Source: a virus (taxonomy: Duplodnaviria; Heunggongvirae; Uroviricota; Caudoviricetes). Taken from it: a DNA stretch of 18,667 bases. A program made the translations under genes and the position numbers. The notes beneath the pieces are model-generated. The model searched no databases. It worked only from the letters and a program-made list of their open reading frames with translations, and was not told where the DNA came from. Position 1 is the stretch's first letter; every line of letters begins with the position of its first letter. Location of the stretch: the IMG/VR virus record IMGVR_UViG_2563366869_000001. One strand, given 5' to 3'. This document shows, in pieces, positions 5,178-18,667 of the stretch.

Positions 5178-5804
5178 TTAGAGTTCGTATTGAACTCCTT
5201 TGACTACACCAATGATAAGGCAATTACCATTGATAGGGATGTTGGGATACCGAGGATTTAATGGCACTAAAAACTTTTGAGGGCCATCGATGACTAATTT
5301 TTTTACTGTAGCTTCGTTTGTTCCATCAAGTCGAGCGATGACTATTTTTCCATGACGAGGTTCTGCATCTGGATCTACAATCACTGTTGCGCCTTCTGGT
5401 ATTGTTGGGAGGCCATTAGGGTTAGTCATGGAGTCACCTTTAACCTCTAATGCAAATGAGTTATCACCAACCTTTAATGATGTATCTACCCACTTGTCCA
5501 CTTCACTAAACACTTCTGCTGCCCTGCACTCAGTAAACTGCCCAGCCTGAACCCACGATATTACAGGAACTCTGCGCATGTTTGTGACGAGTTTGCCTTC
5601 AAACTCAGCACCGTAAAGAATGTAATCTATTGACGTATTGAAGAACTTCGCTAATTTCGAAAGTGCCTCCCCGCCAGGGGTATTGATGTCTTTCTCCCAG
5701 TACCCCACAGCAACGTCGCTTACTCCACAAAATTTACCCAATTCTTTCTGGGACGTTCTGGTAACTCTTCTCAGAGCTTTTATACGCTGACCAACCGTTT
5801 CCAT
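5178..5804 (-). CDS. CI-like prophage repressor (N-terminal HTH plus C-terminal LexA/S24-type autopeptidase domain)
   Basis: 208-aa ORF; HTH near QKELGKFCGVSDVAVGYWE; C-terminal region with Ser (GDSM) and Lys (TVKKL) spaced as in the S24 catalytic dyad; divergent from a cro-like gene. Confidence 0.9.
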   Translation of the reverse strand: METVGQRIKALRRVTRTSQKELGKFCGVSDVAVGYWEKDINTPGGEALSKLAKFFNTSIDYILYGAEFEGKLVTNMRRVPVISWVQAGQFTECRAAEVFSEVDKWVDTSLKVGDNSFALEVKGDSMTNPNGLPTIPEGATVIVDPDAEPRHGKIVIARLDGTNEATVKKLVIDGPQKFLVPLNPRYPNIPINGNCLIIGVVKGVQYEL

Positions 5805-5826: not shown

Positions 5827-5891
5827 CTAAGTAATCTTAGTTTTTATTGACCAAAGATAGATTTGTAATTAGCATCTAACAAAACTTAGTT
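5827..5891 (+). promoter_or_regulatory. Immunity-region operator/promoter (pR-like; pRM probably overlaps on the opposite strand)
   Basis: Palindrome CTAAGTAATCTTAG (5827..5840); -35 TTGACC (5847..5852), 17-bp spacer, -10 TAGCAT (5870..5875); AACTTAGTT at 5883..5891; cro SD GGAGGG follows. Confidence 0.5.
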
Positions 5892-6102: not shown

Positions 6103-6691
6103 ATCGATTAACAGAAACCACAGAACGATGAGGCTAACCGTGGGTAAGCATCACTGGAAAGTAGAAAAACAGCCTGAGTGGTACGTGAAAGCTGTCAGAA
6201 AAACTATCGCAAAGTTGCCGGGTGGTTACGCTGAAGCAGCTGACTGGCTGGATGTAACAGAGAACGCATTATTTAACCGCCTTCGTGCCGATGGCGATCA
6301 GATTTTCCCGCTGGGATGGGCAATGATTTTGCAACGTGCTGGTGGAACTCACTTCATTGCTGACGCAGTGGCGCAGTCTGCAAATGGCGTCTTTGTGTCT
6401 CTTCCTGACGTCGAGGATGTGGACAACGCCGATATTAACCAGCGCCTGCTGGAAGTCATTGAACAGATCGGCAGTTATTCAAAACAGATTCGTTCAGCAA
6501 TTGAAGACGGTGTAGTGGAACCGCATGAGAAGACAGCAATTAACGACGAGCTGTACCTCTCAATTTCGAAGCTGCAGGAGCATGCAGCACTGGTCTACAA
6601 AATTTTTTGCATTTCAGAAAGTAATGACGCCCGCGAGTGTGCAGCTCCGGGCGCCGTGGCGTGTCGTGACTGTGGAGAAACTAACGCATGA
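6083..6691 (+). CDS. YdaT-like protein (CII-analog regulator family, from memory)
   Basis: ORF immediately after cro, overlapping its end; start ambiguous between ATG 6083, ATG 6095 and a later Met; followed by an ATGA-coupled downstream gene. Confidence 0.7.
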
Positions 6692-7026
6692 ACAGTTTAA
6701 CAACACACTACCGTCGCTCGCAACTGATTGCGCTTCCTGTACCGGGTGGAAAAGCGAAGGTGGAATATTGCTATGCAGTGAATGTACCAGGTGACAGGGA
6801 AATTGTAACCCACAGCTTTGCAGAGTGGGCTGTGGGTGATTTCAACCGGCAGAAGGAGACAGTCCTTTGCGACAAGTTAACCGCTGGTTCAAAGATCACT
6901 ACGGAGTACCCGTCAGAGTCATTCGTTGGGAGCCGGAAACACAACGGGTTATCTACCTCCGCGAAGGCTATGAGCATGAGTGCTTCAGCCCGCTCGAACA
7001 GTTTCGTCGTAAATTCAGGGAAATAG
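6688..7026 (+). CDS. Hypothetical protein (112 aa)
   Basis: ATG overlaps the ydaT-like stop (ATGA coupling); ends 9 nt before the SD of the O-like gene; no recognisable motif; overlapping alternative-frame ORFs exist. Confidence 0.45.
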
Positions 7027-7035
7027 AGGTCGGTC

Positions 7036-7992
7036 ATGAGCACTAAATTAACCGGCTATGTATGGGATGGTTGCGCTGCGTCAGGCATGAAGTTATCCAG
7101 CGTGGCAATTATGGCCCGCCTGGCTGATTTCAGTAATGACGAAGGTGTGTGCTGGCCATCAATTGAAACCATTGCACGCCAGATTGGCGCGGGGATGAGT
7201 ACCGTCAGAACGGCTATCGCACGGCTGGAAGCAGAAGGCTGGTTAACGCGTAAGGCGCGTCGCCAGGGTAACCGCAATGCGTCGAATGTTTATCAGCTTA
7301 ACGTTGCGAAGCTTCAGGCAGCGGCATTTTCTCAACTGTCAGATTCTGACCCGTCAAAATCTGACCCGTCAAAATCTGTCCCGTCAAAATCTGTCCCGTC
7401 AAAATTTGATGCGTCGAAATCTGGTAAAAAAGCGGGTTTTCACCCGTCAGAATCTGGCGGGGATCCGTCAGTAAAATCAAAACATGATCCGTCAGATAAA
7501 AAAACTTCTCGTCCGGACGCTTCGCAACCGGACACGCAGACGGATGAACAGGATTTTTTAACTCGCCATCCTGATGCGGTTGTATTCAGCCCTAAAAAGC
7601 GCCAGTGGGGGACGCAGGATGATTTGACCTGCGCACAGTGGCTCTGGAAAAAAATCATCGCCCTGTACGAGCAGGCTGCCGAATGTGACGGCGAGGTGGT
7701 TCGTCCCAAAGAACCGAACTGGACAGCCTGGGCAAACGAAATTCGCCTGATGTGTGTGCAGGATGGTCGTACTCACAAACAAATCTGCGAGATGTACAGC
7801 CGCGTCAGCCGCGATCCGTTCTGGTGCCGTAACGTGCTCAGCCCGTCGAAGCTGCGGGAAAAATGGGATGAGCTTTCCCTGCGCTTATCGCCGTCCGTCA
7901 GCACGTACACAGAAAAACGCGAAGACCCGTACTTCAAAGCCAGTTACGACAATGTGGACTACAGCCAGATCCCGGCAGGATTCAGGGGGTGA
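7036..7992 (+). CDS. Replication initiator, lambda O-like (N-terminal HTH; origin iterons inside the gene)
   Basis: 318-aa ORF with SD GAGG; N-terminal HTH-like segment (PSIETIARQIGAGMSTVRTAIARLEAEGWL); the DPSKS/VPSKS peptide repeats are encoded by DNA iterons, as the lambda ori is within O. Confidence 0.8.
   Translation: MSTKLTGYVWDGCAASGMKLSSVAIMARLADFSNDEGVCWPSIETIARQIGAGMSTVRTAIARLEAEGWLTRKARRQGNRNASNVYQLNVAKLQAAAFSQLSDSDPSKSDPSKSVPSKSVPSKFDASKSGKKAGFHPSESGGDPSVKSKHDPSDKKTSRPDASQPDTQTDEQDFLTRHPDAVVFSPKKRQWGTQDDLTCAQWLWKKIIALYEQAAECDGEVVRPKEPNWTAWANEIRLMCVQDGRTHKQICEMYSRVSRDPFWCRNVLSPSKLREKWDELSLRLSPSVSTYTEKREDPYFKASYDNVDYSQIPAGFRG
7345..7419. repeat. Origin-type iterons: four tandem 15-bp repeats TCTG(A/T)CCCGTCAAAA plus a degenerate fifth; further CCGTCAG copies to about 7500, then an A-rich tract
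   Basis: Exact tandem copies at 7345, 7360, 7375, 7390; degenerate copy at 7405; embedded in the O-like gene. Confidence 0.8.
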
Positions 7993-7994
7993 GC

Positions 7995-8483
7995 ATGAGT
8001 CTTTTGAATGACGTTCAGAAATTCATTGAAGCCCATCCGGGCTGTACTTCCGGAGACATTGCGGATGCTTTTGCAGGTTACTCACGGCAGCGCGTTCTGC
8101 AGTCAGCAAGCAAGTTACGTCAGAGTGGGCGTGTGGCTCACCGTTGTGAAGGAGATACACGCAGACATTTCCCGCGCCTGACTGAGAGAGCGCAGGATCC
8201 GGAACCACAACCAGTTCGTGAAACCAGACCTGTGCGCAATTTCTATGTCGGCACTAACGACCCGCGGGTGATTTTGTGCCTGACCCGCCAGGCGGAAGAA
8301 CTGGAGTCCAGGGGCTTATACCGTCGTGCTGCAACGGTGTGGATGGCGGCATTCCGTGAAAGCCACTCCCAGCAAGAGCGAAACAATTTTCTTGCGCGTC
8401 GTGAGCGGTGTTTACGGAAAAGCAGCAAGCGCGCTGTATCGGGTGAAGAGTGGTATCTGTCAGGGAATTACGTGGGGGCTTAA
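7995..8483 (+). CDS. Hypothetical protein (162 aa) in the position of lambda P; possible N-terminal winged-helix
   Basis: ATG 7995 with SD GGGGGTGA, overlapping the O-like stop; Arg-rich C-terminus; no helicase-loader motifs recognised. Confidence 0.65.
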   Translation: MSLLNDVQKFIEAHPGCTSGDIADAFAGYSRQRVLQSASKLRQSGRVAHRCEGDTRRHFPRLTERAQDPEPQPVRETRPVRNFYVGTNDPRVILCLTRQAEELESRGLYRRAATVWMAAFRESHSQQERNNFLARRERCLRKSSKRAVSGEEWYLSGNYVGA

Positions 8484-8809
8484 TGACGACGTTAACTCAA
8501 TGCCAGCAGCAGGTGCTGGATATGCTGATTTCTTACCAGAAAGAACGTGGCTTCCCGCCAACCAATCAGGAGGTGGCTACCATGCTGGGATACCGTTCAG
8601 TGAATGCAGCGGTGGAGCATCTTCGCGCACTGGAGAAAAAAGGCGTCATCACGATAAAGCGTGGCGTGGCCCGGGGCATCACGCTTCATACCGCGGTGAA
8701 GGACGACGACAGCGAGGTGGCCGGGATTATCCGCGCACTGCTTGCTGGTGAGGAAAACGCCAGGCTGCGTGCAGCCCACTGGTTACATGAGAGGGGGCTG
8801 AAAGTATGA
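8483..8809 (+). CDS. LexA-like N-terminal DNA-binding-domain-only protein (108 aa), no S24 peptidase domain
   Basis: MTTLTQCQQQVLDMLISYQKERGFPPTNQEVATMLGYRSVNAAVEHLRALEKKGVITIKRGVARGITL aligns nearly residue-for-residue with the E. coli LexA N-terminal domain ([65 protein letters not shown]), from memory; TAATG coupling upstream, ATGA coupling to rusA. Confidence 0.8.
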   Translation: MTTLTQCQQQVLDMLISYQKERGFPPTNQEVATMLGYRSVNAAVEHLRALEKKGVITIKRGVARGITLHTAVKDDDSEVAGIIRALLAGEENARLRAAHWLHERGLKV

Positions 8810-9195
8810 AGCTGATTCTGCCTTTTCCACCCAGCGTGAACACCTACTGGCGACACCCCAACAAAGGGGCATTTGCTGGTAAGAGCCTGATAAGCGAGGC
8901 GGGGCGAAAATTCCAGAGTGCGGCGTGCACAGCAATAGTTGAGCAGTTACGTCGTCTGCCGAAACCAACGTCGGCACCTGCTTCAGTGGAGATCGTGTTG
9001 TTTCCCCCGGATAACCGGATCCGCGATCTGGACAACTATAACAAGGCGCTGTTTGACGCCCTGACCCACGCGGGTGTGTGGGAAGACGACAGCCAGGTGA
9101 AAAGAATGCTGGTGGAGTGGGGACCGGTTATCCCGGAAGGGAAGGTCGAGATCACTATCAGTAAGTACGAGAAAACGGCGGGTGCAGCCGCCTGA
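8806..9195 (+). CDS. rusA: RusA-family Holliday-junction resolvase
   Basis: 129-aa ORF; RusA-like motifs (LPFPPSVNTYWRH, DLDNYNKALFDALT) recalled from E. coli RusA. Confidence 0.85.
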   Translation: MKLILPFPPSVNTYWRHPNKGAFAGKSLISEAGRKFQSAACTAIVEQLRRLPKPTSAPASVEIVLFPPDNRIRDLDNYNKALFDALTHAGVWEDDSQVKRMLVEWGPVIPEGKVEITISKYEKTAGAAA

Positions 9196-9214: not shown

Positions 9215-10012
9215 ATGAATAATCTGATGGTCATTGATGGTATTGAAGTTCGTCGTGATGCTTATGGGCGTTACAGCCTGAACGATCTGCACAGGGCTGC
9301 CGGTTCTCTGGATAAGCATAAGCCTGCATTCTGGCTCCGCAATGAGCAAACTGAACGTTTAATAAGCGAGTTGCAGATTTGCAACTCGGTCAATATAGAG
9401 CCAGTTAACGTTATTCGTGGCGGAAATAACCAGGGGACGTATGTCTGCAAAGAACTGGTGTATGCCTATGCAATGTGGATCAGCCCGTCATTCCATCTGA
9501 AGGTGATCCGTACTTTCGATATGGTAACCAGCGCATCGGAAAAATTATCCGGGCAGGCTGCTGACAAGATGCAGGCTGGCGTGATTCTGCTGGACTTTAT
9601 GCGCCGGGAGTTAAACCTGTCTAACTCTTCAGTGCTTGGTGCCTGTCAGAAACTCCAGGAGGCTGTTGGCTTACCGAATCTGGCACCGCGCTATGCCATT
9701 GATGCTCCTGCTGACGCGCCTGATGGCTCAAGCCGTCCCACGCTGTCACTGAGTGCACTGCTGAAGCAGTATGGTATCCGCCTGACAGCTAATCAGGCAT
9801 ATCACCAGATGGTGAAGCTGGGGATCGTCGAGCAGCGCGAACGATACAGCCGTACCGCGATTAACAACATCAAAAAATTCTGGTCGCTGACAGCGAAAGG
9901 CTGCATGTTCGGCAAGAACATCACCAGTCCCGCAAATCCGCGCGAGACGCAGCCGCATTTCTTCGAATCCCGATTCCCTGAGCTGTTAAAGCTGCTCGAT
10001 ACCGTTCATTGA
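9215..10012 (+). CDS. KilA-N domain protein (antirepressor-like)
   Basis: Start at ATG 9215 with SD AGGAGA; N-terminal KilA-N-like segment (IDGIEVRRDAYGRYSLNDLHRAAG...FWLRNEQTERLISEL). Confidence 0.75.
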   Translation: MNNLMVIDGIEVRRDAYGRYSLNDLHRAAGSLDKHKPAFWLRNEQTERLISELQICNSVNIEPVNVIRGGNNQGTYVCKELVYAYAMWISPSFHLKVIRTFDMVTSASEKLSGQAADKMQAGVILLDFMRRELNLSNSSVLGACQKLQEAVGLPNLAPRYAIDAPADAPDGSSRPTLSLSALLKQYGIRLTANQAYHQMVKLGIVEQRERYSRTAINNIKKFWSLTAKGCMFGKNITSPANPRETQPHFFESRFPELLKLLDTVH

Positions 10013-10013
10013 G

Positions 10014-11009
10014 GTGACCGTGAGAGCACTACTGACCCCTGAAATTGCCCCGCGTATGGGGATCGTATTGTTCAGGCCCGGTTCAGAGCTGATGCCCCTG
10101 TTTATGCAGGGGCGTGTACTGCTGGAGCCTGAGCCGGAGCATTATTCATCTTTCGCCAGTGGTGCCGTTCCCGCGGCATCACAACCGCTGGCGGATGATC
10201 CTGCCGTTCGGGCCGTGTTCCGTAATGAGGCAGTGATCCGTCGTGCTGGTGGGGTGGAATGTCTTGAAAGCTGGTTACTTCGTGAAAAAGGCTGCCAGTG
10301 GCCTCATTCCGACTGGCACAGCGAGAACATGACCACAATGCGACACGCGCCGGGCGCAATCCGTCTGTGCTGGCACTGCGATAATCAGTTACGTGATCAG
10401 TTCACGGAGCGGCTGGAATCAATGGCAACGGATAACTGTGCCCGTTGGGTGTTGTCTGTAGTCCGTCGGGATCTCGATTTTAATGATAACCATGCCGTGA
10501 CAATGCCGGAACTGTGCTGGTGGCTGGTTCGTAATGACCTGGCGGATGCCTTACCGGAAAGCGCAGCCCGTAAGGCACTGAGATTACCGAAGTCTGTTTT
10601 GCCGTCTGTCACCCGGGAAAGTGACCTTGTGCCTTCGGTTCCTGCCACCAGCATTATCCAGGATAAAGCGAAAAAGGTGCTGGCGCTGAAAGTGGATCCG
10701 GAGTCGCCGGAGTCTTTTATGTTACGCCCCAAACGTCGTCGCTGGGTTAATGAACAGTACACGCGCTGGGTTAAGACGCAGCCGTGTGCATGTTGTGGAA
10801 AGCCAGCTGATGATCCGCATCATCTGATAGGCCATGGTCAGGGTGGAATGGGTACAAAAGCGCATGACCTTTTTGGGCTGCCTTTGTGCAGAAAACACCA
10901 CGACGAACTGCATGCGGATACCGTGGCATTTGAAGAGAAGTATGGCTCCCAGCTGGAGCTGATATTTCGTTTTATCGATCGCGCACTGGCGATTGGTGTG
11001 CTGGCCTGA
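10014..11009 (+). CDS. DUF968-family protein (YdfU-like) with C-terminal Cys/His-rich HNH-like motif
   Basis: C-terminal [43 protein letters not shown]; sits immediately upstream of Q as ydfU does next to quuQ in Qin (from memory). Start uncertain (GTG 10014, GTG 10020 or a later ATG). Confidence 0.7.
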
Positions 11010-11026
11010 TTTTGTGGAGAAAGTTA

Positions 11027-11410
11027 ATGCGTGATATTCAGATGGTTCTTGAACGTTGGGGAGCGTGGGCGGCTAATAATCATGAAGATGTGACCTGGTC
11101 GTCCATTGCCGCCGGTTTTAAGGGATTAATTCCTTCAAAAGTAAAATCTCGCCCGCAATGTTGTGACGATGACGCGATGATCATTTGCGGGTGCATGGCC
11201 CGTCTGAAAAAGAACAACAGCGATTTGCACGATTTATTAGTAGATTATTATGTAGTCGGTATGACATTCATGTCACTGGCAGGTAAGCATTGCTGCTCTG
11301 ATGGTTATATCGGGAAAAGGTTACAGAAGGCTGAGGGCATAATTGAAGGGATGTTAATGGCATTAGATATCCGGTTAGAGATGGATATCGTTGTTAATAA
11401 CTCTAATTAA
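11027..11410 (+). CDS. Late-gene antiterminator Q (phage 82 / QuuD-type), 127 aa
   Basis: Start at ATG 11027 with SD GGAGA; Cys-rich region ([27 protein letters not shown]) characteristic of this Q family, from memory. Confidence 0.85.
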
Positions 11411-11461: not shown

Positions 11462-11600
11462 CAAAAATAAAGGGTAATATATAACAGAAGGTTTATATAG
11501 TTAGAAGCAAGGTTGTGCTTCTAAAGGAAGTGGCTTGAGGGAGCCACTTATATGTTGGGGAGGCAACGCCTCCCGCAACATATCTTTTTCGTAATCAGAT
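11462..11600 (-). ncRNA. Candidate sRNA or structured 3' UTR downstream of the porin gene (IpeX-like position)
   Basis: Three consecutive hairpins (11503..11522, 11528..11549, 11558..11574) between the porin stop and its terminator; in DLP12 the sRNA IpeX maps between quuD and nmpC (recalled, not verified). Confidence 0.3.
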
Positions 11601-12697
11601 TAGAACTGGTAAACCAGACCTACAGCAACGATGTCATCAGTGCTTACACCGAGTGCTTTAGTGAAGTCATTTTTGTCAAGCAGGTTGATTTTGTAATCAA
11701 CGAAAGTAGACATATTTTTGTTGAAGTAATAGGTTGCACCTACATCAACATATTTGACTAAGTCCTGATCGCCCCATACTCCAAGATCCTTACCTTTAGA
11801 TTGCAGGTAAGCAACGGACGGACGCAGACCGAAATCGAACTGATATTGTGCAACAGCTTCGAAGTTTTGGGCTTTATTAGCAACGAAGTGATCAGCAAAT
11901 ACAGTCATATTCTGGGTTTCAGAATAGGTAGTGGCCAGGTAAATGTTGTTAGCGTCATATTTCAGACCTGCGGCCCAAACTTCTGCATTTTTACCGGAAG
12001 CAAATACTTCAGGAAGAACTTTCCCTGCATTAACTTGAGTGTCGGTACGATCAGATTTCGCATAAGTTGCACCGATACCGAATCCTTCGTATTCATAGGT
12101 AGCAGAGAAACCGAAGCCATCACCGTTACCTTCAGTGTAGTTATCGAAATCGCTACGATCGTTTTTGCCTTGGTACTGAGCAGCAAAGTTCAGACCATCA
12201 ACCAGACCAAAGAAGTCGTTGTTACGATAGGTTGCAACACCAGTGGTGCGACCAGTCATGAACACATCTGTTTGGGTCCAGGTATCGCCACCGAATTCTG
12301 GCAGAACGTCAGTCCACGCACCGATGTCGTATGCTACACCGTAGTTACGGCCGTAATCGATTGAGCCGTAGTCACCGAATTTCAGGCCTGCAAATGCAAG
12401 ACGGGTTTTGTCTTTGGAGGAACCTTGAGATTCAGCGCGGTTGCCTTTGAATTCATATTCCCACTGACCGAAACCAGTCAGTTGATCGTTGATTTGGGTT
12501 TCACCTTTGAAGCCAAGACGGGCATAAGTAGTATCACCATCATCTGCATCATTAGAGGAGAAGTAGTGCTTAGCATTAACTTTCCCGTACAGATCCAGCT
12601 TGTTACTGTCTTTATTATAAATTTCAGCTGCCTGAGCAGACATCGCCATCAGTACTGATGCAGCTACAGCAGAAATTGCCACTGTTAATTTTTTCAT
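11600..12697 (-). CDS. Phage-encoded OmpC-family general porin (Lc/NmpC-type), with signal peptide
   Basis: Start at ATG 12697 ([30 protein letters not shown]); C-terminal aromatic residue (…VGLVYQF); porin sequence characteristic throughout; encoded opposite to Q and the lysis genes. Confidence 0.92.
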
Positions 12698-13124
12698 CGT
12701 GAGCCCTTTTTTTGAACTATTATTAAAAAATGATGTCACTGCGCGATAAATATTCATCTAATCAATGTGATTATTTCAAGATGTAAGTTTTGGTTTCTCG
12801 TTTGATTTGTGAAGTAGATCTCTATTTTTATCTGAACTTTTTTCTATCGAATCCTATTCATAGCTCTTTGCTGAATAAAAATAAATCTATTAGCCAATTT
12901 ATATTAACGGCTGTTATTTATAAGCGCTCTATAATTTGAGGGTTCAATTTAAATAAGCTAAAAATAACACTGGAAATAATTTGTTGGTTATTTGTTGAGA
13001 TTTGCTTATGTATTTGTAGTGGTGTTTTCAATACTCGGTAGCATTCTCGCAAATATCATTTAGTGGTTTACGTACGTAAAAAATTGGTTATGCTGTTAAG
13101 AGTGGTTACTTCGTCACACAGCTT

Positions 13125-14471: not shown

Positions 14472-14765
14472 TTATTGTGAGCAATACACACGCGCTTCCA
14501 GCGGAGTATAAATGCCTAAAGTAATAAAACCGAGCAATCCATTTACGAATGTTTGCTGGGTTTCTGTTTTAACAACATTTTCTGCGCCGCCACAAATTTT
14601 GGCTGCATCAACAGTTTTCTCCTGTCCAATTCCCGAAACGAAGAAGTGATGGGTGATGGTTTCCTTTGGTGTTACTGCTGTCGGTTTGTTTCCAACAGTA
14701 AACGTCTGTTGAGCACATCCTGTAATAAGCATTGCCAGAGCGGCAGAAAACAACATTTTTTTCAT
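14472..14765 (-). CDS. bor: Bor lipoprotein (serum-resistance moron)
   Basis: Start at internal ATG 14765 (MKKMLFSAALAMLITGC, lipobox); sequence near-identical to lambda Bor from memory. Confidence 0.9.
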   Translation of the reverse strand: MKKMLFSAALAMLITGCAQQTFTVGNKPTAVTPKETITHHFFVSGIGQEKTVDAAKICGGAENVVKTETQQTFVNGLLGFITLGIYTPLEARVYCSQ

Positions 14766-15124
14766 CTTATTATCCTGCATTGTTAAAAACGGCAGAATCC
14801 TATGTGACAACAATTAAACGATAGTTAAATGGATTGATGAAAATTAAAACTATATAGGTGGATGCTCAGCCTATTGGAGGAGGGGGGCACTCAGAATCCT
14901 GTGGAATGAAATAAACCGCTCTTTCTGTCCATTACCCTTTTAGCTGCGCTGTATCGTCGCCGTATTCCCGCATTAACCATGACCGTAGCCCGACGGGGAA
15001 TTCCTTCTGCGTGAGTGTGCGGGAATAATCAAAAACGATGCACACCGGGTTTTACTGTGCTGACAGACGCAGGGTTACCCTCATAGTCGCTTTTCCGGTG
15101 CGATGGTGGAAGAAACCGGGATGT

Positions 15125-16253: not shown

Positions 16254-16539
16254 CAGGCTACGGCATTTTGTCCGCGCCGGGCTTCGCTCACTGTTCAGGC
16301 CGGAGCCACAGACCGCCGTTGAATGGGCGGATGCTAATTACTATCTCCCGAAAGAATCCGCATACCAGGAAGGGCGCTGGGAAACACTGCCCTTTCAGCG
16401 GGCCATCATGAATGCGATGGGCAGCGACTACATCCGCGAGGTGAATGTGGTGAAGTCTGCCCGTGTCGGTTACTGGTGCTTTATGGCAGCGCACATCGAC
16501 AGGGTTTACAAATTTTGCCTGGGTCAATACATCTGGTGA
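16228..16539 (+). pseudogene. Terminase large subunit A, N-terminal fragment only (about 82 lambda-like codons, then unrelated read-through to a stop)
   Basis: [82 protein letters not shown] matches lambda gpA; homology ends at about 16472, after which the frame runs into tail-fibre sequence. Confidence 0.85.
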
Positions 16540-17404
16540 TACTTACGATATTTACGTTGCAATCGGAAATTATGCGACTGGTGTAAATATTCAATGGGAT
16601 TATACCAGTAATGCCAGCGTGACGATTCATACGTCACCAGCATATTCTGCTAATAAGCCGGAAGGGTTAACGGACGGTACAGTTTATTCACTCTATACGC
16701 CATCAGAGCAGTTTTATCCGCCTGGCGCACCAATCCCGTGGCCATCAGATACCGTTCCGTCTGGCTATGCCCTGATGCAGGGGCAGACTTTTGACAAATC
16801 TGCATACCCGAAACTTGCAGCCGCTTATCCGTCAGGCGTGATCCCTGATATGCGTGGCTGGACGATTAAGGGCAAACCTGCCAGTGGTCGGGCCGTATTG
16901 TCTCAGGAACAGGACGGCATTAAATCGCATACCCACAGCGCCAGCGCATCCAGTACGGATTTGGGGACGAAAACCACATCGTCGTTTGATTACGGCACTA
17001 AATCCACGAATAACACTGGTGCGCATACCCATAGTTTAAGTGGCAGCACGAATGCAGCTGGTAATCACAGCCATAGAGATGGCCGTCGATTTAACCCCAG
17101 TGTTTTTAAAGATACTTATCAATATGGTTATACAAGCTCAGGTCAAAATACCTGGGGTGTACAAGGCTCAGTAGGTATGTCTACGGGGTGGTTAGCGAAT
17201 ACCAGTACAGATGGTAATCATAGCCATTCACTGTCCGGCACAGCAGCATCTGCAGGTGCACACGCGCATACTGTCGGTATTGGTGCTCATACGCACTCCG
17301 TTGCGATTGGTTCACATGGACACACCATCACCGTTAACGCTGCTGGTAACGCGGAAAACACCGTCAAAAACATCGCATTTAACTATATTGTGAGGCTTGC
17401 ATAA
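16473..17404 (+). pseudogene. Side tail fibre (Stf) C-terminal fragment, about 310 codons, with no native start
   Basis: Ends ...[19 protein letters not shown] as lambda Stf does; His-rich HxH repeats typical of the Stf C-terminus; begins abruptly at the junction with the terminase fragment, in a different frame. Confidence 0.8.
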
Positions 17405-17979
17405 TGGCATTCAGAATGAGTGAACAACCACGGACCATAAAAATTTATAATCTGCTGGCCGGAACTAATGAATTTATTGGTGAAGGTGACGCATATATTC
17501 CGCCTCATACAGGTCTGCCAGCAAACAGTACCGATATTGCACCACCAGATATTCCTGCTGGCTTTGTGGCTGTTTTCAACAGTGATAAGGCATCGTGGCA
17601 TCTCGTTGAAGACCATCGGGGTAAAACGGTTTATGACGTAGCGTCAGGGGACGCGTTATTTATTTCTGAACTCGGTCCGTTACCGGAAAATGTTACCTGG
17701 TTATCGCCGGAAGGGGAGTTTCAGAAGTGGAACGGCACAGCCTGGGTGAAAGATGCAGAAGCAGAAAAACTGTTCCGGATCCGAGAGGCGGAAGAAACAA
17801 AAAACAGCCTGATGCAGGTAGCCAGTGAGCATATTGCGCCACTTCAGGATGCTGTAGATCTGGAAATCGCAACGGAGGAAGAAACCTCATTGCTGGAAGC
17901 CTGGAAAAAGTATCGGGTGTTGCTGAACCGTGTTGATACGTCAACTGCACAGGATATTGAATGGCCAGCACTGCCGTAG
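17404..17979 (+). CDS. tfa: Tail fibre assembly protein Tfa
   Basis: 191-aa [57 protein letters not shown]... matches lambda/Rac Tfa from memory; ATG overlaps the stf stop. Confidence 0.88.
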
Positions 17980-18076
17980 GGTAAAACATATAAATTCTAT
18001 AATTAGATGTATCTTTCCATTTACGGCAAGGAAGGGGGCTTGGAAGACGTAAAGCATCTCACACCGAGATTATTTT

Positions 18077-18667
18077 TTATATGTCAGGTGTCTGAAGTTT
18101 TGCTTTGGCTCTTAAAATGGTTTGCCGCGAGGTTTTGAATTCCCGGGCAATGGCACTTATACTTACACCTGACTTAATTCGTTCGAATACCACCTGTTTC
18201 TGTTCTTCATTTAACACAGGTGGTCGACCAAAACGTTTCCCTGCGCCGCGGGCTCTTACTATCCCGGAATGAGTGCGTTCAAGTAAAAGGTCTCGTTCAA
18301 ATTCAGCGACTGCTGAAATTACGTGCATCATCATTTTTCCTGTTGGACTGGTCAGGTCAATGCCCCCCAATGCTAAGCAATGCACTCTGATACCTGTTTC
18401 GGTCAGTTGTTCCACTGTTTTCCTGATATCCATTGCATTACAACCAAGGCGATCCAGTTTTGTCACAATCAATTGATCACCACATTTCAGGCGAGCAAGC
18501 AACCGGTTAAAACCAGGACGCTCACTGGTTGCTGCTGAGCCGCTAATGTGTTCTTCGATTATTTGCTGAGGTTTGATTTTAAAACCTGCACTTTCGATTT
18601 CCCGGCGTTGATTTTCGATGGTCTGATCCAGCGTTGATATCCGACAGTAAGCAAAAATTCGAGACAT
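18077..18667 (-). CDS. pin: Pin-family serine DNA invertase (PinR/PinQ-like)
   Basis: 196-aa ORF with resolvase/invertase N-terminal catalytic motif (YCRISTLDQ, Ser10) and C-terminal HTH; start codon is the last three bases of the window. Confidence 0.9.

Follow-up and report, generated by a model that had tools for sequence, protein, structure and literature searches.

What might a temperate phage gain from the DNA-binding half of LexA when the half that responds to RecA is gone? The question is raised by the 18,667-nucleotide stretch of DNA analysed here (IMG/VR virus record IMGVR_UViG_2563366869_000001, hereafter "the window"), a defective lambdoid prophage without head or terminase genes in which a 108-amino-acid (aa) LexA-like protein is encoded directly upstream of rusA. 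The SOS response governs mutagenesis, persistence and toxin-prophage induction, and efforts are under way to target the cleavage of LexA with drugs (PMC6182141; PMC11442139). We propose, as a tentative reading that falls only a little short of probable, that this protein is a RecA-insensitive LexA surrogate that would bind CTGT-type sites.

A LexA-Specific DNA-Binding Domain

The initial annotation of this locus held that the protein aligns along the whole LexA N-terminal domain, and it does. Pfam LexA_DNA_bind (PF01726) matches residues 1-65 along positions 1-65 of its 65-position profile (E 2.9e-19, 69 bits against a cutoff of 23.7), with the next-best Pfam families (Crp-like helix-turn-helix, Rrf2) under their own cutoffs, and BLASTP aligns residues 1-68 to E. 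coli LexA without gaps at 35 of 68 identities (51%; E 2e-21). The NAAVEHLRALEKKGVI stretch that had been set against LexA across the recognition-helix region was quoted correctly. Every significant match in a PDB sequence search is LexA (best 1lea and 3jso, E 1e-15), and profile-profile comparison with a LexA alignment (hhalign) gives a probability of 99.9 for residues 1-75 and nothing further. Two AlphaFold models, made from alignments of 15 and 37 sequences (mean predicted local distance difference test [pLDDT] 77 and 82.5), both show the LexA topology of three helices and a two-strand wing; the 15-sequence model superposes on the LexA-DNA complex 3jso with a root-mean-square deviation (rmsd) of 1.4 Å over 68 residues, and structure matches to MarR, BlaI-like and MntR proteins are weaker by orders of magnitude. 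Since the Pfam, BLASTP, PDB, structural and profile matches are all specific to LexA, residues 1-68 are a LexA-specific winged helix and not a generic one.

The residues that matter most for recognition are also in place. In the crystal structure of LexA, S39, N41, A42 and E45 read CTGT directly (PMC11442139); elsewhere N41 and E45 are said to contact bases and R28 the backbone (bioRxiv 10.1101/2020.07.14.201889), and R52-K53-G54 is described as a DNA-binding motif (PMC8607333). In the ungapped alignment to E. coli LexA (PDB 3JSO, 1LEA; TIGR00498), the LexA-like protein retains all four base-reading residues as well as K53, G54 and the wing residues R64-G65-I66, the last three being invariant in the alignments made here; S39 and N41 are invariant in the 37-sequence family alignment.

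A Helical Hairpin in Place of the Cleavage Domain

No match to the S24 peptidase domain (PF00717) was found in the protein by Pfam search, the catalytic residues are absent and homology to the LexA profile ends at residue 75; against the LexA equivalog TIGR00498 (NCBIfam) the protein scores 67.4 bits, below the cutoff of 110.95. The earlier statement that it has neither cleavage site nor S24 domain thus stands, and so does the statement that it cannot cleave itself: with the domain and the catalytic residues missing, RecA-stimulated self-cleavage is not possible. The overall layout of E. coli LexA (DNA-binding domain, flexible or disordered linker, second domain) is shared, but the phage protein lacks the Ala-Gly cleavage loop, the S24 Ser/Lys peptidase and the C-terminal dimerisation domain and has a 30-residue hairpin instead.

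The description of the protein as "DNA-binding-domain-only" overlooked this conserved helical hairpin (residues 74-103). Its helices are modelled with a pLDDT of about 85 in the 37-sequence model, and relatives in other genera retain it even at 35-40% identity; A97 never varies, A93 and L101 hardly do, and the hydrophobic positions repeat at helical spacing. The hairpin is probably a dimerisation module, forming for example a four-helix bundle in the dimer, a reading we draw from the fact that the LexA DNA-binding domain needs dimerisation for tight operator binding. We also considered whether the tail could be a relic of the LexA hinge and cleavage loop, as both MAFFT and TIGR00498 align its "LLAGEE" to LexA "VAAGEP"; this was rejected, because hhalign homology stops at residue 75, the AG pair (A88-G89) is unconserved in relatives and the region is predicted to be helical. 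Judged by sequence, the hairpin is not derived from LexA, having no homology to its hinge or C-terminal domain.

Operon Position, Selection and Distribution

The LexA-like gene is translationally coupled to both of its neighbours, as the initial annotation had proposed, and the sequence shows both overlaps (TAATG and ATGA). The ATG at 8483 opens the reading frame, with the same start in the RefSeq annotation of an identical copy, and its first base is also the last base of the upstream TAA stop (8481-8483); a G-run at 8474-8478 is a possible Shine-Dalgarno sequence. At the other end, the TGA stop (8807-8809) overlaps the rusA ATG (8806-8808). The upstream gene, previously called unknown, encodes a PerC-family (YfdN-like) protein by both Pfam and PHROG matches. 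Only one sigma-70-like match on the plus strand, presumed to be pR, was found upstream of the LexA-like gene, and the window scan found no plus-strand promoter-like site and no convincing terminator-like site between the pR region and Q; therefore, the gene is read in the early rightward operon.

Strong purifying selection acts on the gene. Across 47 full-length alleles, all distinct and drawn from related loci, the ratio of nonsynonymous to synonymous polymorphism (pN/pS) is 0.044 for the whole gene, 0.012 for the domain and 0.083 for the tail, and none of the alleles has an internal stop. At 90% identity or more, 2233 of 5426 complete E. coli genomes (41%) carry the gene, with at most four copies per genome; it also occurs in phages SfII, SfV (orf42), mEp460 and Kati and is carried by Shiga toxin (Stx) 2a, 2c and 2k converting phages.

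The gene is already annotated in thousands of genomes and is less novel than first implied. Its DNA is 100% identical to a RefSeq gene whose product (WP_000210176.1) is named "LexA family transcriptional regulator," and depositors have used the names "LexA DNA binding domain protein," "LexA-like protein" and "transcriptional repressor." It belongs to a family of short prophage LexA-like proteins of about 104-135 aa (PHROG 362; NCBI "LexA family transcriptional regulator"): it matches phrog_362 over its full length (residues 1-108 against 1-106 of 106, E 7e-58), has the hairpin after a linker of variable length and lies in a nin-like position before rusA, DUF968 and Q. A full-text literature search, whose reach left out most subscription journals, found no experimental work on the protein or on SfV orf42.

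Two Types of Relatives and Their Wiring to the SOS Response

Relatives were collected by searching 1.8 billion representative proteins with a profile and by another homologue search; a scan limited to one genome per species gave only four loci, and it was the search of representative proteins, together with contig look-ups, that supplied the diversity described here. The domain and the tail are found together in proteins of Klebsiella, Raoultella, Enterobacter, Cronobacter, Atlantibacter, Leclercia, Citrobacter, Salmonella and Hafnia, and these proteins fall into two types. Type 1 (104-112 aa, including the window protein) follows replication, Dam or PerC genes and overlaps rusA; seven lineages of this type were checked, and in none of them does an SOS box lie near the gene. 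Type 2 (118-135 aa) has an N-terminal extension and is preceded by a conserved gene of 75-85 aa, here called orfX, which is absent from the window and had no match in Pfam, NCBIfam or PADLOC; its product carries the motif TGYAxxRCxD...SFP...YRxG..SFxPL..EIxG. The PADLOC defence models gave nothing meaningful.

SOS boxes were scored with a 20-bp matrix made from 24 E. coli LexA sites, the training sites themselves scoring 12.7-27.6 bits. Five divergent lineages, 38-42% identical to the window protein, have a canonical SOS box of 21.7-27.6 bits on the same strand, 0.4-1.5 kb upstream of the LexA-like gene (Table 1). Each of these type-2 units begins with an SOS-box promoter, continues in some lineages with dinI or with recA, and then has orfX followed by the LexA-like gene; of the six boxes of at least 20 bits in about 57 kb of these loci, five lie at this upstream position. 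From its gene neighbourhoods, then, the family is repeatedly embedded in SOS circuitry. This wiring of the relatives lends indirect support to the suggestion in the initial annotation that the protein could sit on SOS boxes as a non-cleavable competitor. The Klebsiella loci retain the LexA-like gene but not RusA.

Comparison With Known Systems

The LexA-like gene belongs to a known kind, the phage-encoded truncated LexA homologues. Its closest characterised analogue is gp6 of the Bacillus thuringiensis tectivirus GIL01, a truncated LexA homologue that is 44% identical to the host LexA domain, binds a different site (GaCACAnnTGTGaC) and activates transcription of the late promoter P3 (PMC6182141). 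Both gp6 and the window protein are phage-encoded, carry PF01726 without a cleavage domain and come from an early operon; in both cases the phage is temperate, with a life cycle linked to the SOS response. They differ in that gp6 is a tail-less protein of 66 aa, whereas the window protein has 108 aa and the hairpin; in that gp6 has an altered recognition (K38), whereas the window protein keeps the LexA readout residues; and in that the function of gp6 is demonstrated, whereas the window protein is known from its sequence and predicted structure. BLASTP gives no alignment of the two at E ≤ 100; therefore, the truncations are independent, gp6 being of the Firmicute type of LexA and the window protein of the proteobacterial type. 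Exact-motif, matrix and spacing scans of the window gave no candidate for a gp6-like activator site, and the late regions vary among carriers.

Compared to E. coli LexA itself, the phage gene belongs to an early operon and, in the window lineage, lacks autoregulation through an SOS box. The LexA(1-84) cleavage product, like the phage protein, is an isolated LexA-type DNA-binding domain, and this N-terminal fragment reportedly retains weak operator binding. LexA cleavage exposes a C-terminal degradation signal at residue 84, which the phage protein does not have; the phage protein is instead a stable product in its own right, to which a conserved tail has been added. Self-cleavage lowers the DNA affinity of LexA and exposes residues that direct it to ClpXP and Lon, by which the products are rapidly degraded (PMC3159453; bioRxiv 10.1101/2020.07.07.191791), and a staphylococcal phage CI repressor is reported to need ClpX for full inactivation (PMC10584840).

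Repressors of the BlaI/MecI/CopY type share the overall size and the combination of a winged helix with a C-terminal helical part. After LexA, the next Foldseek match over most of the protein is the BlaI-like protein Rv1846c (2g9w; 104 columns, rmsd 7.8 Å, template modelling [TM] score 0.49). The likeness is weak and structural, and the phage DNA-binding domain is of the LexA type, not Penicillinase_R.

A Proposed RecA-Proof LexA Surrogate and Its Alternatives

How such a protein could act can be put together from these elements. A proteobacterial LexA DNA-binding domain would have had its self-cleaving dimerisation domain swapped for a flexible linker and a helical hairpin, and the hairpin would supply the dimerisation otherwise given by the LexA C-terminal domain. 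Synthesis from the early rightward (pR) operon, coupled to the PerC-like gene and rusA, would begin after loss of the repressor or on infection. CTGT-type half-sites (SOS boxes) would be the most likely target because the four base-reading residues of LexA are kept and, since there is no Ser/Lys peptidase, activated RecA could not inactivate the protein by self-cleavage. LexA-controlled promoters, both of host SOS genes and of SOS-box genes of the same or other mobile elements, would then be held shut while the host LexA is being destroyed. As to timing, type 1 would be made when the phage early operon fires and type 2 when the SOS response fires.

Several observations weigh against this reading. 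LexA R28 is replaced by N28 (and the position varies in the family) and R52 by K52; position 44, counted among the contacts by an older model (PMC13416735), is never Glu in the family and is V, A, F, T, N, L or Y instead (V in the window protein). E45 is lost in several SOS-linked type-2 relatives (NAVLLH in Klebsiella, NTVFIH in L178), so that the LexA readout is not uniformly kept in the family. Dimerisation through the tail is putative, and so is any half-site spacing that it would impose. An SOS box upstream of a type-2 gene indicates that LexA controls the gene and that SOS modulators accompany it, which is no sign of what the product itself binds, and gp6 provides the example of a LexA-derived phage protein with another site and an activating role (PMC6182141). 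Finally, the window is without an SOS box by both the exact motif and the matrix scan: there is no exact CTGT-N8-ACAG in it.

The near-misses in the window do little to change this. Sites with one mismatch to CTGT-N8-ACAG number 12 against 6.6 expected (12 or more in 8 of 200 shuffles), barely more than shuffled sequence gives. With the matrix, the highest-scoring site (14.6 bits) falls within DUF968 at 10740, next to a 95th percentile of 14.9 in the shuffles, and this site is not conserved (CAG is AAG in L024). The suggestion in the initial annotation that the protein might regulate phage genes through LexA-like sites therefore finds no candidate site in the window, whether by the exact motif or by the 20-bp matrix. 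When the spacing was varied (CTGT-N0-14-ACAG and its inverse, 30 combinations), the top counts were 3 (N13) and 2 (N5), where about 0.25 would be expected for each spacing, so that none of the alternatives stands out as clearly enriched.

Where, then, would the target be? Across 89 related loci, the LexA-like protein is 95-100% identical in nearly all, rusA is present in 89 of 89 and KilA-N and DUF968 are usually present, together forming a co-travelling block, while the modules exchanged around it include cI (98-100%, 41% or none), O (96%, 67% or 30%), Q (45-100%) and the lysis genes. The intergenic gaps within the block are only 2-20 bp, and no conserved palindrome or intergenic region was found inside it. 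A constant protein amid swapped immunity, O, Q and lysis modules, with gaps this short, makes a fixed, dedicated operator in the phage regulatory regions unlikely; if the target is constant, it would be found in coding DNA or on the host chromosome.

The same data bear on the main alternative, that the protein is a regulator with a diverged specificity of its own, an activator or repressor at a site other than the SOS box with targets in the phage, in the coding DNA of the co-travelling block or in the host. We consider this rather unlikely, although gp6, activating a late promoter from GaCACAnnTGTGaC, is a precedent for it; the family consistently lacks an acidic residue at position 44, has not kept R28 and in some lineages has lost E45, and the tail may set a different half-site spacing or touch RNA polymerase. 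The block nevertheless offers neither a palindrome nor an intergenic region that is conserved, the protein stays constant among loci that differ in their immunity, Q and late-promoter modules, other CTGT/ACAG spacings lack clear enrichment in the window and the four LexA base-reading residues are intact in the window lineage. Even if the protein does have its own target, it would still be an uncharacterised regulator in a large share of E. coli prophages. An improbable alternative is that it is no transcription factor at all but a DNA-binding accessory of the RusA/DUF968 recombination-replication genes, targeting or modulating junction processing: its gene always adjoins rusA in the related loci (89 of 89) and usually overlaps it, DUF968 is linked and recA is nearby in L183 and L184, but the Klebsiella loci keep the gene without RusA, the conservation of the recognition helix fits base-specific reading and we know of no precedent for a LexA-type winged helix in junction processing. 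That the gene might be a decaying, functionless remnant of a captured lexA is suggested by its resemblance to a truncated LexA and by the existence of frameshifted or fused copies (the L006 PerC fusion; P0030, P0079), yet the pN/pS of 0.044 and the absence of internal stops, the retention of the tail to 35-40% identity across genera and the conserved synteny and translational coupling effectively refute it.

The surrogate reading can be extended to the whole family, as a phage-made, RecA-proof LexA of which the E. coli lambdoid type would re-silence the SOS regulon at the onset of lytic growth and the Klebsiella/Enterobacter type, SOS-induced together with DinI or RecA, would act as a delayed negative feedback that ends the SOS response; in this full form it is doubtful. 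If it is true, the genes silenced could include those for TisB and other LexA-controlled toxins, mutagenic polymerases, colicins and the LexA-controlled antirepressors of rival prophages. The LexA-controlled toxin TisB is reported to prevent prophage induction via ATP depletion (PMC12626290), and a phage would benefit from re-silencing genes of this kind. A RecA-proof LexA copy in about two in five sequenced E. coli and in Stx2 phages would alter the behaviour of the SOS regulon in lysogens and during induction. With carriers among Stx-converting phages and in 41% of complete E. coli genomes, the family would then be a common but hidden influence on mutagenesis that depends on the SOS response, on antibiotic tolerance and on the induction of toxin phages.

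Other Features of the Prophage and Its Relatives

The window opens with an integrase gene, yfdP/Q/R-like genes, the S24-type cI, a cII-like gene and the O-like replication gene, continues with the PerC-like gene, the LexA-like gene, rusA, KilA-N, DUF968 and Q, and ends with porin, holin, lysozyme, Rz and bor genes, a tail-fibre fragment, a tail-fibre assembly gene and an invertase gene (Table 1).

Table 1. Positions of features in the window and of SOS boxes and type-2 units in related loci (L numbers).
Feature	Sequence	Position	Strand	Remarks
LexA-like gene	window	8483..8809	+	108 aa plus stop
LexA-type winged helix-turn-helix, residues 1-68	window	8483..8686	+	helices 6-22, 28-35, 40-52; strands 56-58, 66-68
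Recognition helix, residues 39-52, SVNAAVEHLRALEK	window	8597..8638	+	S39, N41, A42, E45 kept; E44 replaced by V
Flexible linker, residues 69-74	window	8687..8704	+	pLDDT <50 for 71-74; length varies across family
Family-specific helical hairpin, residues 75-108	window	8705..8806	+	helices 74-87, 93-103; from models and family alignments
S24-type cI	window	5178-5804	-	
Sigma-70-like promoter match, presumed pR	window	5847..5875	+	cI/cro-cII intergenic region; consensus match only
PerC-family (YfdN-like) gene	window	7989..8483	+	Pfam PF06069 E 9e-10; PHROG 1324; stop overlaps LexA-like start
rusA Holliday-junction resolvase gene	window	8806..9195	+	start overlaps LexA-like stop; with LexA-like gene in 89/89 related loci
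KilA-N domain gene (antirepressor-like regulator family)	window	9215..10012	+	member of co-travelling block
DUF968/HNH-like gene	window	10014..11009	+	member of co-travelling block
Q-like antiterminator gene	window	11012..11410	+	closes early rightward operon holding LexA-like gene
Porin gene	window	11600-12757	-	Porin_1, E 1e-156; between Q and lysis genes
bor gene	window	14472-14813	-	after lysis genes
Tail-fibre fragment, tail-fibre assembly gene, Pin-like invertase	window	16463-18667		directly after lysis cassette
SOS box TACTGTTTATTTATACAGTA	Klebsiella L174-176			27.6 bits; overlaps TTGAAC-17-TATACT promoter; then dinI
SOS box	L178	5561		26.7 bits; then orfX
SOS box	Enterobacter L181/182	5560		21.7 bits; then small open reading frame, orfX
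SOS box	L183	2893		25.6 bits; then full recA homologue (TIGR02012, 512 bits)
Two SOS boxes	L184	4907 and 4923		26.9 and 17.4 bits; then recA fragment
Type-2 unit, box to LexA-like gene	L174	6385-7393		
Type-2 unit, box to LexA-like gene	L178	5561-6357		
Type-2 unit, box to LexA-like gene	L182	5560-6408		
Type-2 unit, box to LexA-like gene	L183	2893-4784		
Type-2 unit, box to LexA-like gene	L184	4907-6070		
cI-internal SOS box	L002	7103-7122		cI 6639-7331, - strand
cI-internal SOS box	L004	1865-1884		
Methyltransferase-gene SOS box	L024	14075-14094		conserved between distant loci
Methyltransferase-gene SOS box	L178	8739-8758		conserved between distant loci

The close relatives of the window phage carry SOS boxes of their own at three places, none of which is present in the window. 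In SfII-like relatives, a perfect box (TACTGTATATAAAAACAGTA, 27.2 bits) lies in the linker-coding region of a 230-aa S24-type cI, and its core is kept in a Citrobacter version despite differing neighbouring codons; it might mark an internal or antisense LexA-controlled promoter. A functional tie between this box and the LexA-like gene was considered, as the gene is present in 34 of the 37 such loci with enough flanking sequence, and was rejected: the same loci share the O module, which makes this lineage linkage and not independent evidence, and the gene is also found with other cI types. In many relatives, a second box (TACTGTAAAAATAAACAGTG) lies across codons 3-9 of a gene for a DNA methyltransferase, downstream of Q. 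The third, at 10765-10784 in L006 (and also in L056), is in the 160 bp of spacer that these two relatives have between rusA and a variant KilA-N gene. The variant is 67% identical to the KilA-N of the window, where the spacer has 20 bp and no box; by its sequence context, this variant looks like a LexA-controlled antirepressor-type gene.

Some smaller observations concern the neighbours. The PerC-family protein has its PerC domain at residues 100-152 and possibly an N-terminal winged helix, with a weak MarR-like PHROG match at residues 7-70, and in other lineages a Dam methylase lies between the PerC-like and LexA-like genes. In L006 (9512-10327), a frameshift joins the PerC-like and LexA-like frames into a single open reading frame of 271 aa, and the database entries P0001, P0121 and P0294 are similarly fused or extended versions. 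Upstream of the Klebsiella LexA-like locus (L174, 574-2542), an AAA_15/AAA_21 ATPase gene is paired with a DUF4435 gene, and the pair looks like defence-system cargo. Within the O-like replication gene of the window, 5.3 tandem copies of a 15-bp unit (TCTGACCCGTCAAAA) at 7345-7423 encode a repeated SDPSK/SVPSK peptide; their copy number differs in L006, and they are probably origin iterons.

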